DNA of 64,000 nucleotides from Asaia bogorensis (GCA_945868845.1 CAMBMS010000014.1:2592-66591); one strand, 5' to 3'; positions 17,112 to 57,716 are shown, counted from the stretch's first letter. The notes: generated by a model not told the origin, from the letters alone. Made by a program: numbers and translations.

Positions 17112-17569
17112 GCCAGGCATCCTCCAGTCGTCACCTTCAGCGACACAACGGCGCGACGCACCTGGCCATCTGCATGCACGGCCAGCGCGATCACCGCCTG
17201 TTCCTCCGCGATGCGAATACGCGTTTGCACCTCAGCGCGCGCCAGGGCAGGACTAAGGTGGAAGCTCGCGATGCCTGGCGTCGGATTGCGCGTGGCAAAC
17301 AGGTGGATGGCGGCGACGTAGTCAGTTACCGTCATCGGGCTGTCCGCGATGACGATCAGCGGCACCTGGGCGCCATTTTCTGCCGTCCCAGGCAGGCGCA
17401 ACTCCACGCCGCCATCGATGATTGGCGCGTCGCCGATGCGTTCGCGTATGGCGGCCATCAGATCAGCTTCCGTCATGCCGGCTTCGGCGGTGCCTGCGAG
17501 CACTGCCGTCCATGGCAGCGCGAGCAAAGCCACTGTCCCGCGCATTGCATGGCGGCGGCCCAGACGCAT
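17108..17569 (-). CDS. soxY: thiosulfate-oxidation carrier protein SoxY
   Basis: Tat-like signal (RRHAMRGTVALLAL), ENGAQVPLIVIAD, and a C-terminal carrier-arm cysteine in KVTTGGCLA. Confidence 0.85.
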   Translation of the reverse strand: MRLGRRHAMRGTVALLALPWTAVLAGTAEAGMTEADLMAAIRERIGDAPIIDGGVELRLPGTAENGAQVPLIVIADSPMTVTDYVAAIHLFATRNPTPGIASFHLSPALARAEVQTRIRIAEEQAVIALAVHADGQVRRAVVSLKVTTGGCLA

Positions 17570-18849
17570 CAGGCGAACATGTCGTATGTGAGAGAACGGT
17601 ACCAGGCATCAGCATTGGTCGATTCCTGCTTGCGCAGATCCGGTAGATCACCACGCTGGGATACGCCGCCAGAATTCGGCACTTCCGCGATCGTTGTGTC
17701 CGTCGGGCGGTAGATACCGACCACGGAGATCCCGTAGTTTGGGCCGACATGGCTGTAGCAGGTGTTGAAATACACTGCTTCTGGGGGTGCTTCGCCCCGC
17801 AGTAGCGCAGCGGCGCTGGCCACTGCCTGTTTAGCGGTATTGGACGCGACATAACCCGATTTCGGCATCGGCGTTCCGTTACAGGCATCACCGATCACAT
17901 GAATGCCGGGCGATGACTTCGCCTCGAACGTCTTGTGATTTACCGGTACCCAGCCGGACGCATCGGCAAGCCCTGCATCCAGGGCGATCTTCGCCGCGGA
18001 CTGTGGCGGAATTACGTTCGCCACCGCCACTCTATGCTTCACGCCGAACTCGCTGATCAGGAGCTTCTCCTTCGCGTCGACCTTTACCACCTTACCGTCT
18101 CTCGCCAGCGGGACCCATTCGATCATGTCGCCGTAAAGTGCCTTCCAGGCATCCTGGAACAGCCCCTGCTTGCTGAATGCGTCCTTTGCGTCCAGCGCCA
18201 GGATCTTGGATTTTGGTTTCGCCTTTTTAAGGTAGTCAGCGATCATGCTGATTCGCTCATACGGCCCGGGCGGGCAGCGGAACGGATTGGCCGGGATCGC
18301 TAGGCCCACCAAGCCGCCATCCGGCATCGCTTCCAGTTGGCGGCGTAGCAGTAAGGTCTGCGCACCGTCGCCTTGAATCCACGCATGCGGCATCTGTTGC
18401 GCGGCCGCCTCGTCATAGCCTTCTAGGGCATCCCACTTGATGGATATGCCAGGGGAGACGATCAGCCTGTCATAGGTTACAACGGTTCCGCTGCGCGTCT
18501 TCACCGTCTTTTTCGTGGCGTCGATCGCCACCACCCAGTCGGGAATCAGCTTGATGCCGTGCTGCTTCAGCCCGTCATAGGAATGGGTGATGTCGGCCAG
18601 CTTGCGCGTACCGGCCAGCACCAGGTTGGAATAGGGACAGGTGATGAATTTCGGTTGAGGCTCGATCATCGTCACGTCCATCCAGGGATAGTTCATGCGT
18701 GCGAAGCGCGCCGCCGTGGCGCCGCCGAACCCGCCACCGATGACAACTAGGCGCGCCTTCGCCTGCTGCGCGTGCAAAATCGATGGGGTTGTAAGAAGCG
18801 AGGCGCCGGAGGCCGCGAAGAGCGCGCGGCGGGACATGATGCGGCTCAT
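17569..18849 (-). CDS. fccB: flavocytochrome c sulfide dehydrogenase, flavoprotein subunit (FccB/SoxF type)
   Basis: 426 aa with a Tat signal (SRRALFAASGASLL), FAD fold (VVIGGGFGGATAA), RCPPGPYERISM and IHVIGDAC, as in FCSD flavoprotein subunits. Confidence 0.85.
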   Translation of the reverse strand: MSRIMSRRALFAASGASLLTTPSILHAQQAKARLVVIGGGFGGATAARFARMNYPWMDVTMIEPQPKFITCPYSNLVLAGTRKLADITHSYDGLKQHGIKLIPDWVVAIDATKKTVKTRSGTVVTYDRLIVSPGISIKWDALEGYDEAAAQQMPHAWIQGDGAQTLLLRRQLEAMPDGGLVGLAIPANPFRCPPGPYERISMIADYLKKAKPKSKILALDAKDAFSKQGLFQDAWKALYGDMIEWVPLARDGKVVKVDAKEKLLISEFGVKHRVAVANVIPPQSAAKIALDAGLADASGWVPVNHKTFEAKSSPGIHVIGDACNGTPMPKSGYVASNTAKQAVASAAALLRGEAPPEAVYFNTCYSHVGPNYGISVVGIYRPTDTTIAEVPNSGGVSQRGDLPDLRKQESTNADAWYRSLTYDMFA

Positions 18850-19157
18850 CGGCTTGCTCCTGGAGGTTTCTGGGCGGCAAAGAAGGCGGCGACAGCTGCG
18901 ATCTCCGCATCCGTGTAGCCGCGCGCGATGCGGCCCATGATGCTGGCCGGTCTTTCGTTCTTACGGAACGCCTGCATGGATGCTTCGATATCCGCTTTTG
19001 GTCGCCCGGCGAGGGGCGGAATGGGTTGCGATCCCGCGCCGGCTTGGCCGTGGCAACCCACACAGCCCTGCGCGGCTAGCGGCGCTTGCGCCCAGCTCGG
19101 GGCGGACCCAGCGATGAGTAGCGCAGCCCAGGTTGCGGTCAGAGTTCCGTGCCTCAA
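18846..19157 (-). CDS. fccA: monoheme c-type cytochrome (FccA/SoxE-like partner of FccB)
   Basis: 103 aa with a signal peptide and a single CVGCH heme-binding motif. Overlaps the fccB start by 4 nt. Confidence 0.7.
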   Translation of the reverse strand: MRHGTLTATWAALLIAGSAPSWAQAPLAAQGCVGCHGQAGAGSQPIPPLAGRPKADIEASMQAFRKNERPASIMGRIARGYTDAEIAAVAAFFAAQKPPGASR

Positions 19158-19366: not shown

Positions 19367-20662
19367 TCACTGGCGTGACGAAACCGGCCGATTCATCCCG
19401 AAGACGGGTCGCAACTTCATGCCGAGCAGGTTACCCGCCAGGGCCGGCACGATCCACACCCAGCCATGCAAGCTGCCCGAAGCGGTGCCCGAAATCCATG
19501 CGCTGATATTGCATCCGGATGCGATTACTGCCCCCACCCCCAGTAACAGCCCGCCCACTAGGGAGGCGAGCACATGGCCCGGGCACGGCCACGCCATTCG
19601 CGCTGCCCGATCTGTCAGAGATGCGGCAAACAGCGCGCCCAGCATGAGGCCTAAATCCATCGCCGTAATCCGGTCGCCGCCCAGCGGGCGCAGCAGCGCC
19701 TCGGTCCGTGTTGGATCTTCCCAGTATGCCCAGAAGGCTGGGTCATCCCAGTTCAACGCTTCCACCGCCTTGGCGCCCCACAGGGGAAAGGCCGCGGTGA
19801 TCGCCCAAGGCCGGCCCATCAGCACAAGCGTGGCAAGGTTGAGCAGCGCCAAGCCTGCCGCGCCCCAAAGCAAGGGCCATGGCCCCCAAAGTCGTGATGC
19901 TCCCCCCATCCCGCCCGTCTGCTTATCTTCCCCTTGCTCTGGGCGCCAGCGTAGCGTCGCCACTTGCCCATGACGCGCGCGTTCCAGCGCCTGGACGAGG
20001 GCGTAGAGGCCGCCGATGATAATAAATGTTCCCAACAGTGTCGGCCATAACCCGAATTCGGCCGCGAGCGCGACGGGTGGCAGGGCCGGCAAGCCGTTCC
20101 AGAGTTCCGCGTGCCATGCTGCTAGCGTGGCGCCGATGACAAAGCAGGCGAGTGTCAGCCACATCCGCATGCTGCCCGCGCCAGCGGCGTAGAGCGTGCC
20201 CGAGCCACAGCCACCGCCAAGCTGCATTCCTATACCAAACAGAAATGCTCCGATCAGCGTCGCGACACCCGTTGGAAAAACCAAACCGCGCATGGGCAGC
20301 CCGAATAAACTGTTCCCGGCTACCACCGGCAGGATTAGCAACGTTGTTAGTGCTAGCAATACCAGTTGGGCCCGAAACATCGCGCTCAGCCGTGCGCCCA
20401 ACAATAGCCGGAAGCTGCCAGCGAAGCTGAAGCTGCATTGGAACAGGGTGAGACCAAGGGCGGCCCCGAGCGGCCATGCTATAGCCTGCCACCACCCGGC
20501 ATTCATCGCGGTCCAAACCATGCCGGCCAACAACAGGCCAGTTGCCGCATAGGGGATCAGACGCTGCCGCTTCGAATCTACGCTTGCGCTGCTTGGAGCG
20601 GTCACATCGCCAAGAGTAGGCGCAGGATCGAGTGATTGCTCGTGTTCAGGTTGGGGACACAA
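19367..20662 (-). CDS. YeeE/YedE family (thiosulfate/sulfur-compound transporter-like) membrane protein, two-domain form
   Basis: A polytopic membrane protein with the two conserved Cys loops QLGGGCGSGTLY and VIASGCNISAWI. Start uncertain because the N-terminal roughly 45 aa may not be coding. Confidence 0.8.
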   Translation of the reverse strand: MCPQPEHEQSLDPAPTLGDVTAPSSASVDSKRQRLIPYAATGLLLAGMVWTAMNAGWWQAIAWPLGAALGLTLFQCSFSFAGSFRLLLGARLSAMFRAQLVLLALTTLLILPVVAGNSLFGLPMRGLVFPTGVATLIGAFLFGIGMQLGGGCGSGTLYAAGAGSMRMWLTLACFVIGATLAAWHAELWNGLPALPPVALAAEFGLWPTLLGTFIIIGGLYALVQALERARHGQVATLRWRPEQGEDKQTGGMGGASRLWGPWPLLWGAAGLALLNLATLVLMGRPWAITAAFPLWGAKAVEALNWDDPAFWAYWEDPTRTEALLRPLGGDRITAMDLGLMLGALFAASLTDRAARMAWPCPGHVLASLVGGLLLGVGAVIASGCNISAWISGTASGSLHGWVWIVPALAGNLLGMKLRPVFGMNRPVSSRQ

Positions 20663-54834: not shown

Positions 54835-56274
54835 TCAGGTGCGGCCATACGCGTCCTCGATGCGGACGATATCGTCCTCACCGAGGTAGGTACCCGATTG
54901 CACTTCAATCAGGGTGAGTGGGATCTGGCCGGGATTTTCCAGCCGGTGGATGCTGCCCTGGGGCAGGTAGACGCTCTCATTCTCGCGCACCACGAACTTG
55001 TCCGTGTCGCGGGTGACCAGGGCGGCGCCATGCACCACCACCCAGTGCTCGGAGCGATGGAAATGTTTTTGCAGGGAAAGTTTTTGCCCTGGCAAAACGA
55101 CGAGGCGCTTGACCTGGAAGCGATCGCTGCTGATCAGGCTTTCGTAAAAGCCCCAGGGACGATCGACGCGGTTATGTGCCACAGCCTGCTGACGCTGCGC
55201 CGCCTTCAGCCGGTCCACCACTTTCTTCACGTCCTGCGCCTGGTCGCGGTGCATGGCGAGCACGGCGTCCGGCGTGACCACCACCACCGCATCGCGCAAC
55301 CCCACCACCGCAGTGAGAATGCCGTCGGAGCGGACATAGCAATTCTCGGTGCCTTCCAGTATCACATCGCCGATGGCGGCATTGCCGGTGGTATCCTTAG
55401 CCGCCAATTCCCACAGCGCGCTCCAGCTGCCGACATCGGACCAGCCAATATCGGCTTTTACCACGGCGGCGCGTGTGGTGCGCTCGGCGACCGCGTAGTC
55501 GAGGCTGATATTTGGGCCGGCGGCAAAACTCTCGGGGTCGAGACGAAGAAAATCCAGATCCTGTTTGCGGTGGGCGACAGCCAGCCGCGTGGCGTTCAGC
55601 ACATCCGGCGCATATGCCTCCATCTCCGCGATCAGGGTCCGCGCGGTAAAGACGAACATGCCGGAATTCCACAGATGGGTGCCGCTGCCAACTAGCAGCG
55701 CCGCCTCTGAAGCACCCGGCTTTTCCACAAACCGGGTCAGCCGATGCACACCCGTGGTCGGGGACAATTGATCTCCGACCTCGAGATAGCCGTAGCTGGT
55801 TTCCGGCGCGGTCGGTTTCATCCCGAAGGTCACGACATAGCCGGCCCGCGCGGCCTCAGCGGCGCGATCCAACGCTTTATGCAGGGCGGGAACGTCGGTA
55901 ATGGCGGCATCGGCAGTCATCATCCACAGAACGGCATCGGCGTCGGTTTCCGCTTGCAGCAGCGCGGCGGCGGTGATGGCGGGGGCACTGTTGCGGCCCA
56001 CCGGTTCCAGCATGATTTGCGCGCCCGTGATGCCGGCGGCACGCAATTGCTCAGCAATGAGAAAACGGTGCTCATGGTTGCAGACCACAATAGGTGCGGT
56101 GAAGCTGTCGCCGGTGGCGCGCAGCGCGGTTTCATGGAGCATCGAGCGCGCCGAGATCAGTGGCCAGAGCTGCTTCGGAAAACTCTCGCGCGACACCGGC
56201 CAGAGCCGCGTACCGGAGCCGCCGGAGAGAATCACGGGGACGATTTTTGTCACACTTTTGTTCGCCTGGGTCAT
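54835..56274 (-). CDS. manC: mannose-1-phosphate guanylyltransferase / mannose-6-phosphate isomerase (bifunctional type II PMI-GMP)
   Basis: VILSGGSGTRLWPVSRESFPKQ, with a C-terminal cupin region (RPWGFYESL...HFHRSEHWVVVHG). ATG verified at 56274. The 562-aa track ORF reads on through the palindrome and is rejected. Confidence 0.9.
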   Translation of the reverse strand: MTQANKSVTKIVPVILSGGSGTRLWPVSRESFPKQLWPLISARSMLHETALRATGDSFTAPIVVCNHEHRFLIAEQLRAAGITGAQIMLEPVGRNSAPAITAAALLQAETDADAVLWMMTADAAITDVPALHKALDRAAEAARAGYVVTFGMKPTAPETSYGYLEVGDQLSPTTGVHRLTRFVEKPGASEAALLVGSGTHLWNSGMFVFTARTLIAEMEAYAPDVLNATRLAVAHRKQDLDFLRLDPESFAAGPNISLDYAVAERTTRAAVVKADIGWSDVGSWSALWELAAKDTTGNAAIGDVILEGTENCYVRSDGILTAVVGLRDAVVVVTPDAVLAMHRDQAQDVKKVVDRLKAAQRQQAVAHNRVDRPWGFYESLISSDRFQVKRLVVLPGQKLSLQKHFHRSEHWVVVHGAALVTRDTDKFVVRENESVYLPQGSIHRLENPGQIPLTLIEVQSGTYLGEDDIVRIEDAYGRT

Positions 56275-56321
56275 CAACGGCGACAGATTTGCCAGCGCTC
56301 CCGGGGGCTGTCCAGCATTAC

Positions 56322-56446
56322 GGTCGTGTCTCCGTTTGATCGGCGCCGGCCCGCTCCCCCATCCGGGCACCCGCAGTGTATGATCGTTGGGTGGCCCAAG
56401 GGGGGATGGGGGAGCGGGCCGGCGCCGATCAAACGGAGACACGACC
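56322..56446. repeat. 125-bp palindromic element with 43-bp perfect inverted arms (MITE/REP-like)
   Basis: Left arm 56322-56364 (GGTCGTGTCTCCGTTTGATCGGCGCCGGCCCGCTCCCCCATCC) is the exact reverse complement of right arm 56404-56446. The 39-nt spacer is itself partly self-complementary (GGGCACCC...GGGTGGCCC). AGCATT occurs on both flanks (56314-56319 and 56447-56452). Confidence 0.85.
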
Positions 56447-56494
56447 AGCATTTGGGCCTTGCTCGAGGGGCGGCGGGGCGGGCAGACTGCCGGT

Positions 56495-56713
56495 ATGAAA
56501 ATCGAGATCGAATATTGCGGCATGTGAGGCTATGAACCGCGCGCCCGTGCGGCGCGCGATTTGTTGGCCCGGGATGTCCCTGAGGCGGAGATCAGCCTGC
56601 GGAAATCCGTCGGCGGCGTGTTTGAAGTCACGGTCGATGGCGCGCGGCTTTATTCCAAGAAGGCCACCGGGCGGTTTCCCACCGAAGTGGAATTGCTGGC
56701 GGTACTGCCTTAA
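56495..56713 (+). CDS. SelW/Rdx-family (SelT/SelW/SelH-like) selenoprotein candidate with in-frame UGA (Sec) at codon 11
   Basis: My own translation gives MKIEIEYCGM-U(TGA 56525-56527)-GYEPRARAARDLLARDVPEAEISLRKSVGGVFEVTVDGARLYSKKATGRFPTEVELLAVLP*. The CxxU lies directly after the first beta-strand, and the GGVFEVxVDG...SKKxxGRFP core matches the Rdx fold. A hairpin follows the UGA. The gene is absent from the ORF track because the TGA splits it. Confidence 0.7.
56538..56558 (+). promoter_or_regulatory. candidate bacterial SECIS hairpin
   Basis: An 8-bp GC stem (CGCGCGCC 56538-56545 paired with GGCGCGCG 56551-56558) with a 5-nt apical loop CGUGC. The stem begins 10 nt after the UGA, so the loop G/U lie about 20-24 nt downstream, within the range described for bSECIS elements. 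Confidence 0.45.
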
Positions 56714-57666
56714 TTGTCTTTGGCTTCATTCTCTTTCGGCCATTCGGTCTGGCCCAGCACCCAGCCCTCCCAACGTGTCAGCCAGGGATCGTTGGGGGCA
56801 GTGTCCGGACGATTGCCCGCCAGCACGTTGATGACGCAGAGCACCCCCAAAAGACTGTCGAAACGGTCTTCGCCGCCGGCATCGGCGCCAAAACCGTCCG
56901 CCAGCATGCCTGACAGCGCGCGATGCGGGCGGATACCGAGGGTCGCCATGGCGGCATGGATATCCGCCGCCATGGCTAGCCGGTCTGCCTGGCGGCGCTT
57001 GCTGCCCGAAATGCGCAAGCCGAGATGGCGCAGCGCCTCCGCCGGGTAGGTTTCCGCCACCGCGACGCGGCCAGGGGCGAGCAAGGCACGAAACGGACCG
57101 GCGAAGGGCCAGAGATCGATGGAAGCATTGGCCATCAGGGCGGGGACTAGCATGTCCCGCCAGGCCGCGATGGCCGCCGTGCCGACCTGGTTGGCGCCCA
57201 AGGTCCAGAACAGGGGGGCGCCGGCGCGGCGTATCGCGGTGGCGGCGTCGCAGGCGCGCGAGAGGGCGCGCGCGTCGGGCAAGCCCAAGGCAGCGGCGTG
57301 CGCGGCACGGGTCATGCCCTTGAGGCCGCGCGCAGGATAGAAGGGCCGATCGGGCGAAACGTCGTTCAGCGTGGTGCAGACCTGAAAGAAGCTTGGCCGG
57401 TTCGCCAGGGCGCGCAAGAACGTGACGAAATCGCCGCTGGCATAGCGCGCGGCATAGGCGCGCGGCAGGCCAAGAGAAAAATCCACGCCCAGGGCCACCG
57501 GCGCGCCTTTGGCCGCCAAGCACAGCCGGTCTAGGAAGTTTTCGACCGGCCCCACGGGCACTGGGGCAGCAACCATCCAGCCGCGTGTGTCGTGCCGGGC
57601 AACGGTCACGAAACGTTTACGCGCATCCAGGCTCCAATCGGCGTGCGCCGCGAAAATTTTCATCAT
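56710..57666 (-). CDS. hypothetical protein, possibly DUF429-like (RNase H-like fold)
   Basis: About 318 aa; MMKIFAAHADWS..., GVDFSLGLP, VAETYPAEALRHLGL, DRFDSLLGVLCV. The D...E...D spacing recalls DUF429, but this is a weak, recollection-based call. Its stop overlaps the SelW-like stop by 4 nt (convergent). Confidence 0.4.
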   Translation of the reverse strand: MMKIFAAHADWSLDARKRFVTVARHDTRGWMVAAPVPVGPVENFLDRLCLAAKGAPVALGVDFSLGLPRAYAARYASGDFVTFLRALANRPSFFQVCTTLNDVSPDRPFYPARGLKGMTRAAHAAALGLPDARALSRACDAATAIRRAGAPLFWTLGANQVGTAAIAAWRDMLVPALMANASIDLWPFAGPFRALLAPGRVAVAETYPAEALRHLGLRISGSKRRQADRLAMAADIHAAMATLGIRPHRALSGMLADGFGADAGGEDRFDSLLGVLCVINVLAGNRPDTAPNDPWLTRWEGWVLGQTEWPKENEAKDN

Positions 57667-57716
57667 AGATGCATTGGCGCACGGTATGTTCGCGTGGCAC
57701 ATCGAGGAAATCGGCC

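Follow-up and report, generated by a model that had tools for sequence, protein, structure and literature searches.

The 64,000-nucleotide (64-kb) stretch of DNA analysed here, hereafter called the window, carries a short reading frame that is interrupted by a TGA codon near its beginning, and the question raised by this locus is whether the frame is one gene in which UGA is read as selenocysteine (Sec) or a frame that ends at an ordinary stop codon. The sequence-only reading that drew attention to the locus had proposed a SelW/Rdx-like selenoprotein gene, and every element that it described is present: on the plus strand, the frame opens with ATG at 56495, encodes MKIEIEYCGM, meets TGA at 56525–56527, and continues for 61 sense codons until TAA at 56711–56713 closes it. 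The complete gene (56495–56713) has 72 codons plus the stop, and its extent is based on the translation, matches to profile hidden Markov models (HMMs), and conservation of the ATG. With U at the TGA, the conceptual translation is MKIEIEYCGMUGYEPRARAARDLLARDVPEAEISLRKSVGGVFEVTVDGARLYSKKATGRFPTEVELLAVLP. The first residue of its C-x-x-U redox dyad, Cys8, is encoded by TGC at 56516–56518 (plus strand) and is invariant in the ortholog alignment. The conserved in-frame TGA that follows (plus strand), read as Sec11, aligns with the second Cys of the CxxC motif. From the evidence set out below, we consider it very probable that the locus is a single 72-residue Rdx/SelW-like gene whose UGA-11 is recoded to Sec by means of a hairpin inside the open reading frame (ORF).

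ORF callers split this gene, as had been stated for the window: a mechanical ORF list gives 56387–56527 and 56561–56713 in its place. The second of these ORFs begins at an internal in-frame TTG (codon 23, 56561–56563, plus strand), which is the start used in the 50-aa database annotation (P0006/MSO91448.1). In the NCBI record for a contig from a 99.7%-identical metagenome-assembled genome (MAG), only this C-terminal 50-aa piece is listed (MSO91448.1, "SelT/SelW/SelH family protein"), and for syntenic orthologs in related Baikal MAGs, NCBI likewise lists 50-aa fragments; the NCBI calls P0006 and P0011 both have an internal TTG start. The JGI homologs P0001, P0002, P0004, and P0005 have W at the Sec position, as if a Mycoplasma-type code were in use, while the DNA (L002) reads TGA. 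Neither the NCBI nor the JGI pipeline yields the correct full-length Sec product for the homologs examined, and full-length C, W, or X variants of the exact product are absent from the protein collection. No other gene interrupted by an in-frame TGA was found when the 64-kb window was scanned, the 27 candidates being ordinary same-frame neighbours or non-coding frames. A consensus scan identified no Shine-Dalgarno motif or promoter for the selW-like gene. The interval 56495–56713 is a real gene cut short by gene callers, and its description is an annotation correction, not a discovery; the error that it corrects recurs across public databases.

The product belongs to the Rdx family. With U replaced by C, it matches the Pfam Rdx model (PF10262) with E = 3.7e-19 and 69.2 bits (gathering score, 22.6), and the NCBIfam model TIGR02174 (CXXU_selWTH) with 62.6 bits against a cut-off of 34.2. 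The proposed Rdx-fold membership is thus upheld by scores well over both curated cut-offs, and the HMM check against PF10262 gave a significant match. A comparison of the family profile with the PDB retrieved eight solved Rdx proteins (MIEN1 2LJK, Atu0228 2FA8, 2OKA, 2OBK, 3DEX, 2OJL, 2P0G, and mouse SelW 2NPB). E-values range from 5e-12 to 1e-4 for 2LJK, 2FA8, 2OKA, 2OBK, 3DEX, 2P0G, and 2NPB. In the two alignments displayed of these eight, the CxxC motifs of human MIEN1 (2LJK) and Atu0228 (2FA8) align on C8-x-x-U11 of the window protein. The claim that the stop codon falls on the second redox residue also held, the TGA column being Cys in the solved Rdx structures and in the two TGT homologs described below.

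The structural prediction was made on P0007, a Cys-form homolog with 64% identity, and not on the window protein itself. Its AlphaFold model has a pLDDT of 93.7 and the topology beta1(2–8)-CxxC-alpha1(14–27)-beta2-beta3-beta4-alpha2, in which the first Cys is located at the end of beta1. The best PDB matches of this model are bacterial SelW-related proteins (TM 0.81–0.85), followed by mouse SelW (0.66), MIEN1, and thioredoxins. Mapped via the P0007 model, the motif C8-G-M-U11 of the window protein would be placed between beta1 and alpha1, and the predicted structure has the thioredoxin-like beta-alpha-beta-beta-beta-alpha fold expected of the family. Judging by the motif, the fold, and family knowledge of redox activity, the product is most likely a small thiol/selenol oxidoreductase. 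To our knowledge, the solved Rdx proteins have no established substrate.

Conservation of the TGA was examined in 167 sequences, which comprised 80 loci from GTDB species-representative genomes, 80 metagenome loci, six loci from protein look-ups, and the window. At the CxxU position, 165 of the 167 sequences (146 unique gene sequences) have TGA, the other two have TGT, and TGG or any further codon never occurs. The gene is carried by Acetobacteraceae, Rhodopila, Xanthobacteraceae, Pseudolabrys, Hyphomicrobiales, and further MAGs of Alphaproteobacteria of soil, peat, and freshwater origin. The two TGT members, L085 (742) and L086 (146), are the sole Cys forms in the sample, and each is one base away from TGA. 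Both retain the SECIS-like hairpin described below, and one is on a contig with 1.7x coverage; either a switch from Sec to Cys happened recently in these members or their TGT codons are sequencing errors. Cys-form homologs were also considered as a negative control for the hairpin and proved unusable for this purpose, there being only two, both with the hairpin retained.

Codon-position entropy was computed over 139 unique orthologous sequences. The values for positions 1/2/3 are 0.42/0.24/0.77 for codons 2–10 upstream of the TGA, 0.25/0.32/0.93 for codons 12–22 between the TGA and the internal TTG, and 0.62/0.48/1.31 for the remainder of the gene, whereas the 30 nt 5' of the ATG are unconstrained, with an entropy of 1.82. 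The ATG is kept in 138 of the 139 unique orthologs, and a start-type codon is found at the internal TTG position in 40% of orthologs only. This pattern shows purifying selection both before and after the TGA, and the internal TTG at 56561 is probably not a real start. The nearly universal ATG, the coding pattern on both sides, and the infrequent internal start therefore argue strongly against both a 50-aa gene and a pseudogene. The comparison of orthologous loci that the sequence-only reading had envisaged accordingly bears out its proposal, in that TGA is retained, alternates rarely with the Cys codon TGT, and is flanked by coding conservation. In the window, TGA is also the commonest ordinary stop and ends 12 of the 21 HMM-confirmed genes; the genetic code of the organism is therefore the standard one, and UGA-11 needs a local recoding signal.

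The closest relatives of the window place the gene in a defined genomic context. Over 17.4 kb, the window shares 99.74% identity with contig SHWF01000032 of GCA_009693935.1, a MAG of Acetobacteraceae from Lake Baikal. Compared with the independently assembled contig L001, it is identical across 461 bases around the gene and has 45 differences over 17.4 kb. The syntenic orthologs L003, L004, and L006 share the gene order ManC - selW - DUF429-like - cytochrome b561 and keep the TGA; their flanks have approximately 80–84% DNA identity, and the selW gene is too diverged for blastn alignment. On the basis of these sequence matches, the host lineage is a freshwater Acetobacteraceae bacterium.

Several features were observed in the flanks of the selW-like gene. 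A perfect 43-nt inverted repeat (56322–56364 and 56404–56446, with a 39-nt spacer) is located between the divergent manC-like gene and the selW-like ATG. As RNA, it has a folding energy of -123 kcal/mol (z = -13). The window has a single copy, which L001 shares, whereas neither the orthologous spacer of L003 nor any of the 165 other loci contains the repeat. Possible identities are a MITE-like insertion and a palindrome with a regulatory role. The mechanical ORF for the ManC-like protein (mannose-1-phosphate guanylyltransferase/isomerase; 54835–56523, minus strand, 562 aa) runs through this palindrome and overlaps the start of the selW-like gene. Because the gene called in L001 has 479 aa, the 562-aa ORF is regarded as an over-extension, and there is no true overlap. 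On the other side, the selW-like gene meets a convergent 330-aa gene (56710–57702, minus strand), and the stop codons of the two overlap at TTAA (56710–56713). The 330-aa gene has no Pfam or NCBIfam match, its L003 ortholog has a faint match to DUF429, and the pair is syntenic in L001, L003, and L004.

The candidate for the local recoding signal is a stem-loop at 56538–56558 (plus strand), which corresponds to the upper stem-loop of a SECIS element and starts approximately 10–11 nt past the TGA. Sequence and fold confirm what had been reported at this position, 10 nt past the TGA: an 8-bp stem of G and C (CGCGCGCC/GGCGCGCG, perfectly paired) and a 5-nt, G/U-containing apical loop, CGUGC (56546–56550). 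Numbered from the U of UGA, positions 14–21 pair with 27–34, and the loop at 22–26 reads C-G-U-G-C, which includes G23 and U24. The apical loop opens 18 nt after the UGA and contains G, in agreement with the rule for bacterial SECIS elements of 16–37 nt from UGA to the apical loop (PMC10778597). An Rfam scan of the window, hairpin region included, gave no match. The 51-nt segment 56525–56575 folds with -25.4 kcal/mol, which is only mildly better than its dinucleotide shuffles (z = -1.9), and the significance of the hairpin therefore rests on comparative data. The minimum free energy structure of the same segment pairs 56525–56536 with 56560–56571, suggesting a possible lower SECIS stem down to the UGA (56528–56571, plus strand). 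This lower stem is tentative because it is predicted for the window sequence only, the folds of the orthologs not predicting a lower helix consistently.

In a 76-sequence alignment, standard pairs are formed in 83–88% of the cells, compared with 20–64% when the 3' arm is slid by 1–3 columns. Compensatory changes are found at pair 15:33, where G:C (7) alternates with A:U (7), and at pair 18:30, where C:G (53), U:G (5), and U:A (3) occur. Double-change cells number 10 versus 4.3 +/- 1.8 in shuffles, and none of the 500 shuffles reached 10. The percentage of paired cells was not significant against the column shuffle (82.6% versus 82.1%) because the columns are nearly invariant; the case for the hairpin draws instead on the slid-register control, the number of double changes, and codon bias relative to a genomic background.

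The hairpin sits in the codons for E-P-R-A-R-A-A-R, and because the conserved peptide P-R-A-R-A-A-R is encoded there, the protein sequence fixes four of the six core stem pairs. As the background for codon choice, 153,625 codons were taken from 278 long ORFs in the same loci. The Arg18 codon in the loop is CGU in 97% of cases (background, 12%), and the Ala17 codon in the 5' arm is GCC in 88% (43%), while in the 3' arm, the Ala19 and Ala20 codons are GCG in 100% and 80%, respectively (41% each), and the Arg21 codon is CGG in 69% (27%); the chi-square and p-values for these biases ignore the relatedness of the sequences, and the biases are read qualitatively. The opposite third bases of the Ala codons in the two arms and the rare Arg codon fixed in the loop therefore point to selection at the RNA level beyond the protein. 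The GU at positions 23–24 is present in 114 of 139 sequences, with approximately 18% of the orthologs being without it. Most orthologs have a bulged G15 instead of the perfect 8-bp stem of the window, and a bulged U17 of the E. coli type was found in none. These comparisons indicate that selection, as read from the aligned codons, maintains the stem and the loop GU beyond the needs of the peptide; the fold proposed next to the TGA thus has both bacterial SECIS geometry and selection at synonymous sites.

A scan for intrinsic terminators flagged 56538–56567, which consists of the hairpin followed by AUUUGUUGG. This assignment was not retained, as the T-rich tail is specific to the window and not conserved, the orthologs reading GGGACAUGAUC. 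The resemblance to a terminator is probably coincidental in view of the ortholog sequences, and the hairpin with its T-rich tail could cause some premature termination on untranslated mRNA in this organism.

The machinery for Sec insertion was searched for in the window and in the related loci. The 64-kb window contains no tRNA-Sec or tRNA of any other kind and has no tblastn match to SelA, SelB, or SelD; Pfam scans of 20 large window ORFs showed housekeeping and catabolic genes only, without sel genes. The best 120 matches of a SelA search in a collection of 5.8 billion proteins were all Pseudolabrys-like. In seven related loci (L061, L062, L065, L050, L146, L155, and L163), selD is located within a few hundred bases of the selW-like gene. 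The Pseudolabrys-like MAGs have the selW-like gene beside a compact sel cluster, with selD on the opposite strand. In L061 (10001–15172) and L062, selD is followed by consecutive selA, selB, and tRNA-Sec genes, and L065 has selA-selB-tRNA-Sec upstream of its selW-like gene. The NCBIfam equivalog scores in L061 are 492 bits versus 299 for SelD, 577 versus 268 for SelA, and 427 versus 242 for SelB. The SelB ORF as listed for this cluster extends into the tRNA-Sec gene. No other obvious selenoprotein gene was found in the scanned flanks of L062. These gene neighbourhoods provide strong evidence, at the level of the lineage, for Sec machinery beside the selW-like gene.

The sequence-only reading had also pointed to a YeeE/YedE-family gene at 19367–20662, a family linked to selenium or sulfur transport. 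The gene itself exists (minus strand; Pfam Sulf_transp, 178 bits), whereas its link to selenium is weak: it adjoins a gene for the flavoprotein of flavocytochrome c sulfide dehydrogenase (17569–18960, minus strand) with FCSD domains. A role as a selenium transporter was not adopted for this minus-strand neighbour of a sulfide dehydrogenase gene, and its surroundings suggest a part in the metabolism of sulfur or thiosulfate and not in the uptake of selenium.

We propose the following course of decoding. When the ribosome reaches the UGA, the apical loop of the downstream hairpin would offer G23 and U24 to SelB, and SelB-GTP would deliver Sec-tRNA(Sec) at UGA-11 in competition with release factor 2. 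In the folded protein, the Cys8-x-x-Sec11 dyad between beta1 and alpha1 would cycle through an intramolecular selenenylsulfide. From established knowledge of the family, we infer that Sec is actually inserted in this organism.

Three other readings of the locus were weighed. In one of them, the UGA is translated as a residue other than Sec, such as Trp, or by near-cognate read-through, and the hairpin either acts only as a brake on the ribosome or arises incidentally from the peptide sequence. The W at the UGA position in the four JGI proteins, the large part of the hairpin that is forced by Arg and Ala codons, and the absence of Sec machinery from the window would be in keeping with this reading. 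It is nevertheless very unlikely, as TGA is a genuine stop in 12 of the 21 window genes under a standard code, and the column in question is a catalytic Cys in the solved homologs, with TGT as the sole alternative codon and never TGG. Furthermore, the loop GU at 23–24 and the arm-specific Ala codons are selected beyond the protein, and sel genes adjoin the selW-like gene in the seven loci.

The gene might instead be a relic in this organism, terminated at codon 11 and decaying after loss of the Sec machinery. Apart from the window being devoid of such machinery, this reading could draw on the frequent loss of selenoproteins and of the Sec trait in bacteria (PMC1794560). We regard decay as highly improbable in the face of an intact gene with neither a frameshift nor an extra stop, whose sequence is the same in the independent contig L001. 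The loss of Sec decoding is normally accompanied by conversion to Cys or by deletion of the gene; here, the stem remains at its optimal 8 bp with GU in the loop, and the sister species L003, L004, and L006 retain the gene. That the real gene is the 50-aa ORF from TTG 56561, preceded by a non-coding leader or a 10-codon uORF from the ATG to the TGA, as the mechanical ORF 56561–56713 and the annotation of near-identical and syntenic MAG loci would have it, is scarcely credible, since the start-type codon is found there in a minority of orthologs, the 21 codons upstream of the TTG are strongly conserved as protein and vary at third positions, in contrast to the unconstrained true 5' UTR, and the 50-aa product would be without beta1, the CxxU motif, and half of alpha1. 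We therefore retain the reading of a single 72-residue gene with Sec at UGA-11.

The putative recoding signal can be compared with the well-known SECIS element of E. coli fdhF. The functional upper stem-loop of fdhF comprises nucleotides 15–31, approximately 11 nt after the UGA, and has conserved G23 and U24 in its apical loop, which are described as contacting SelB, as G23 does (PMC8659212). The window hairpin has the same distance of approximately 11 nt past the UGA and the same G23/U24 in the apical loop. The fdhF element has a bulged U17; in the window copy, the perfect pairing of all 8 bp leaves no such bulge.

At the protein level, the top-scoring NCBIfam model is NF041051 (SelTWH_Campy), which describes a Campylobacter SelT/SelW/SelH family (seleno)protein of the same short architecture; the alignment runs from end to end (3–70 of 72 versus 1–68 of 70). 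The score of 75.7 bits is under the 88-bit equivalog cut-off, and the window gene is thus related to this group and not a member of it. The solved Cys-form Rdx proteins (Atu0228 2FA8, P. aeruginosa 2OKA, P. fluorescens 2OBK, S. avermitilis 3DEX, and V. cholerae 2P0G) share the fold and the position of CxxC. These solved bacterial structures are Cys forms of approximately 100 aa with 27–35% identity, whereas the window protein is shorter and Sec-using.

Relative to the known family, the mildly new points, measured against the literature cited here, are the size and uniformity of the compact alphaproteobacterial clade, the sel-cluster linkage in Pseudolabrys-like genomes, and the recurrent mis-annotation. 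Nothing here is conceptually new: the family, its CxxU chemistry, and recoding by a SECIS inside the ORF were all established before. With 165 Sec to 2 Cys forms, the 72-aa clade might depend on Sec almost obligately and be inherited together with the Sec machinery, acting as the main client that sustains costly Sec decoding in aerobic soil and freshwater Alphaproteobacteria and possibly forming a transferable "Sec island"; we consider this extended proposal speculative and rather unlikely. Probable selenium use is indicated for the Acetobacteraceae lineage of Lake Baikal and for many Alphaproteobacteria of soil and peat, which bears on trace-element ecology and on estimates of the spread of the Sec trait among aerobes.

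Bacterial SelW-like CxxU selenoproteins were reported in 2005 from the Sargasso Sea (PMC1088965), and the studies of Zhang, Gladyshev, and colleagues on them extend from 2005 to 2008 (PMC1088965, PMC1794560, PMC2398784). The known members have CxxU with Sec as the second residue, a small single-domain thioredoxin-like fold, and an in-ORF SECIS right after the UGA, as in the window gene. A comparative-genomics study of 2006 noted that Cys homologs of SelW-like proteins are very few or absent (PMC1794560; also PMC2398784), and in the GOS data, the ratio of Sec to Cys forms is 427:56. The scarcity of Cys forms, 165:2 here and 427:56 in GOS, fits this SelW-like picture. The taxa named for SelW-like proteins in the passages drawn on are mainly anaerobic Deltaproteobacteria and Clostridia (PMC1794560), together with marine metagenomes (PMC1088965, PMC2398784). 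Compared with these mainly anaerobic bacteria and marine samples, as far as those passages describe them, the clade of the window gene is a compact 72-aa form from aerobic Alphaproteobacteria of soil, peat, and fresh water, namely Acetobacteraceae, Rhodopila, and Xanthobacteraceae/Pseudolabrys.
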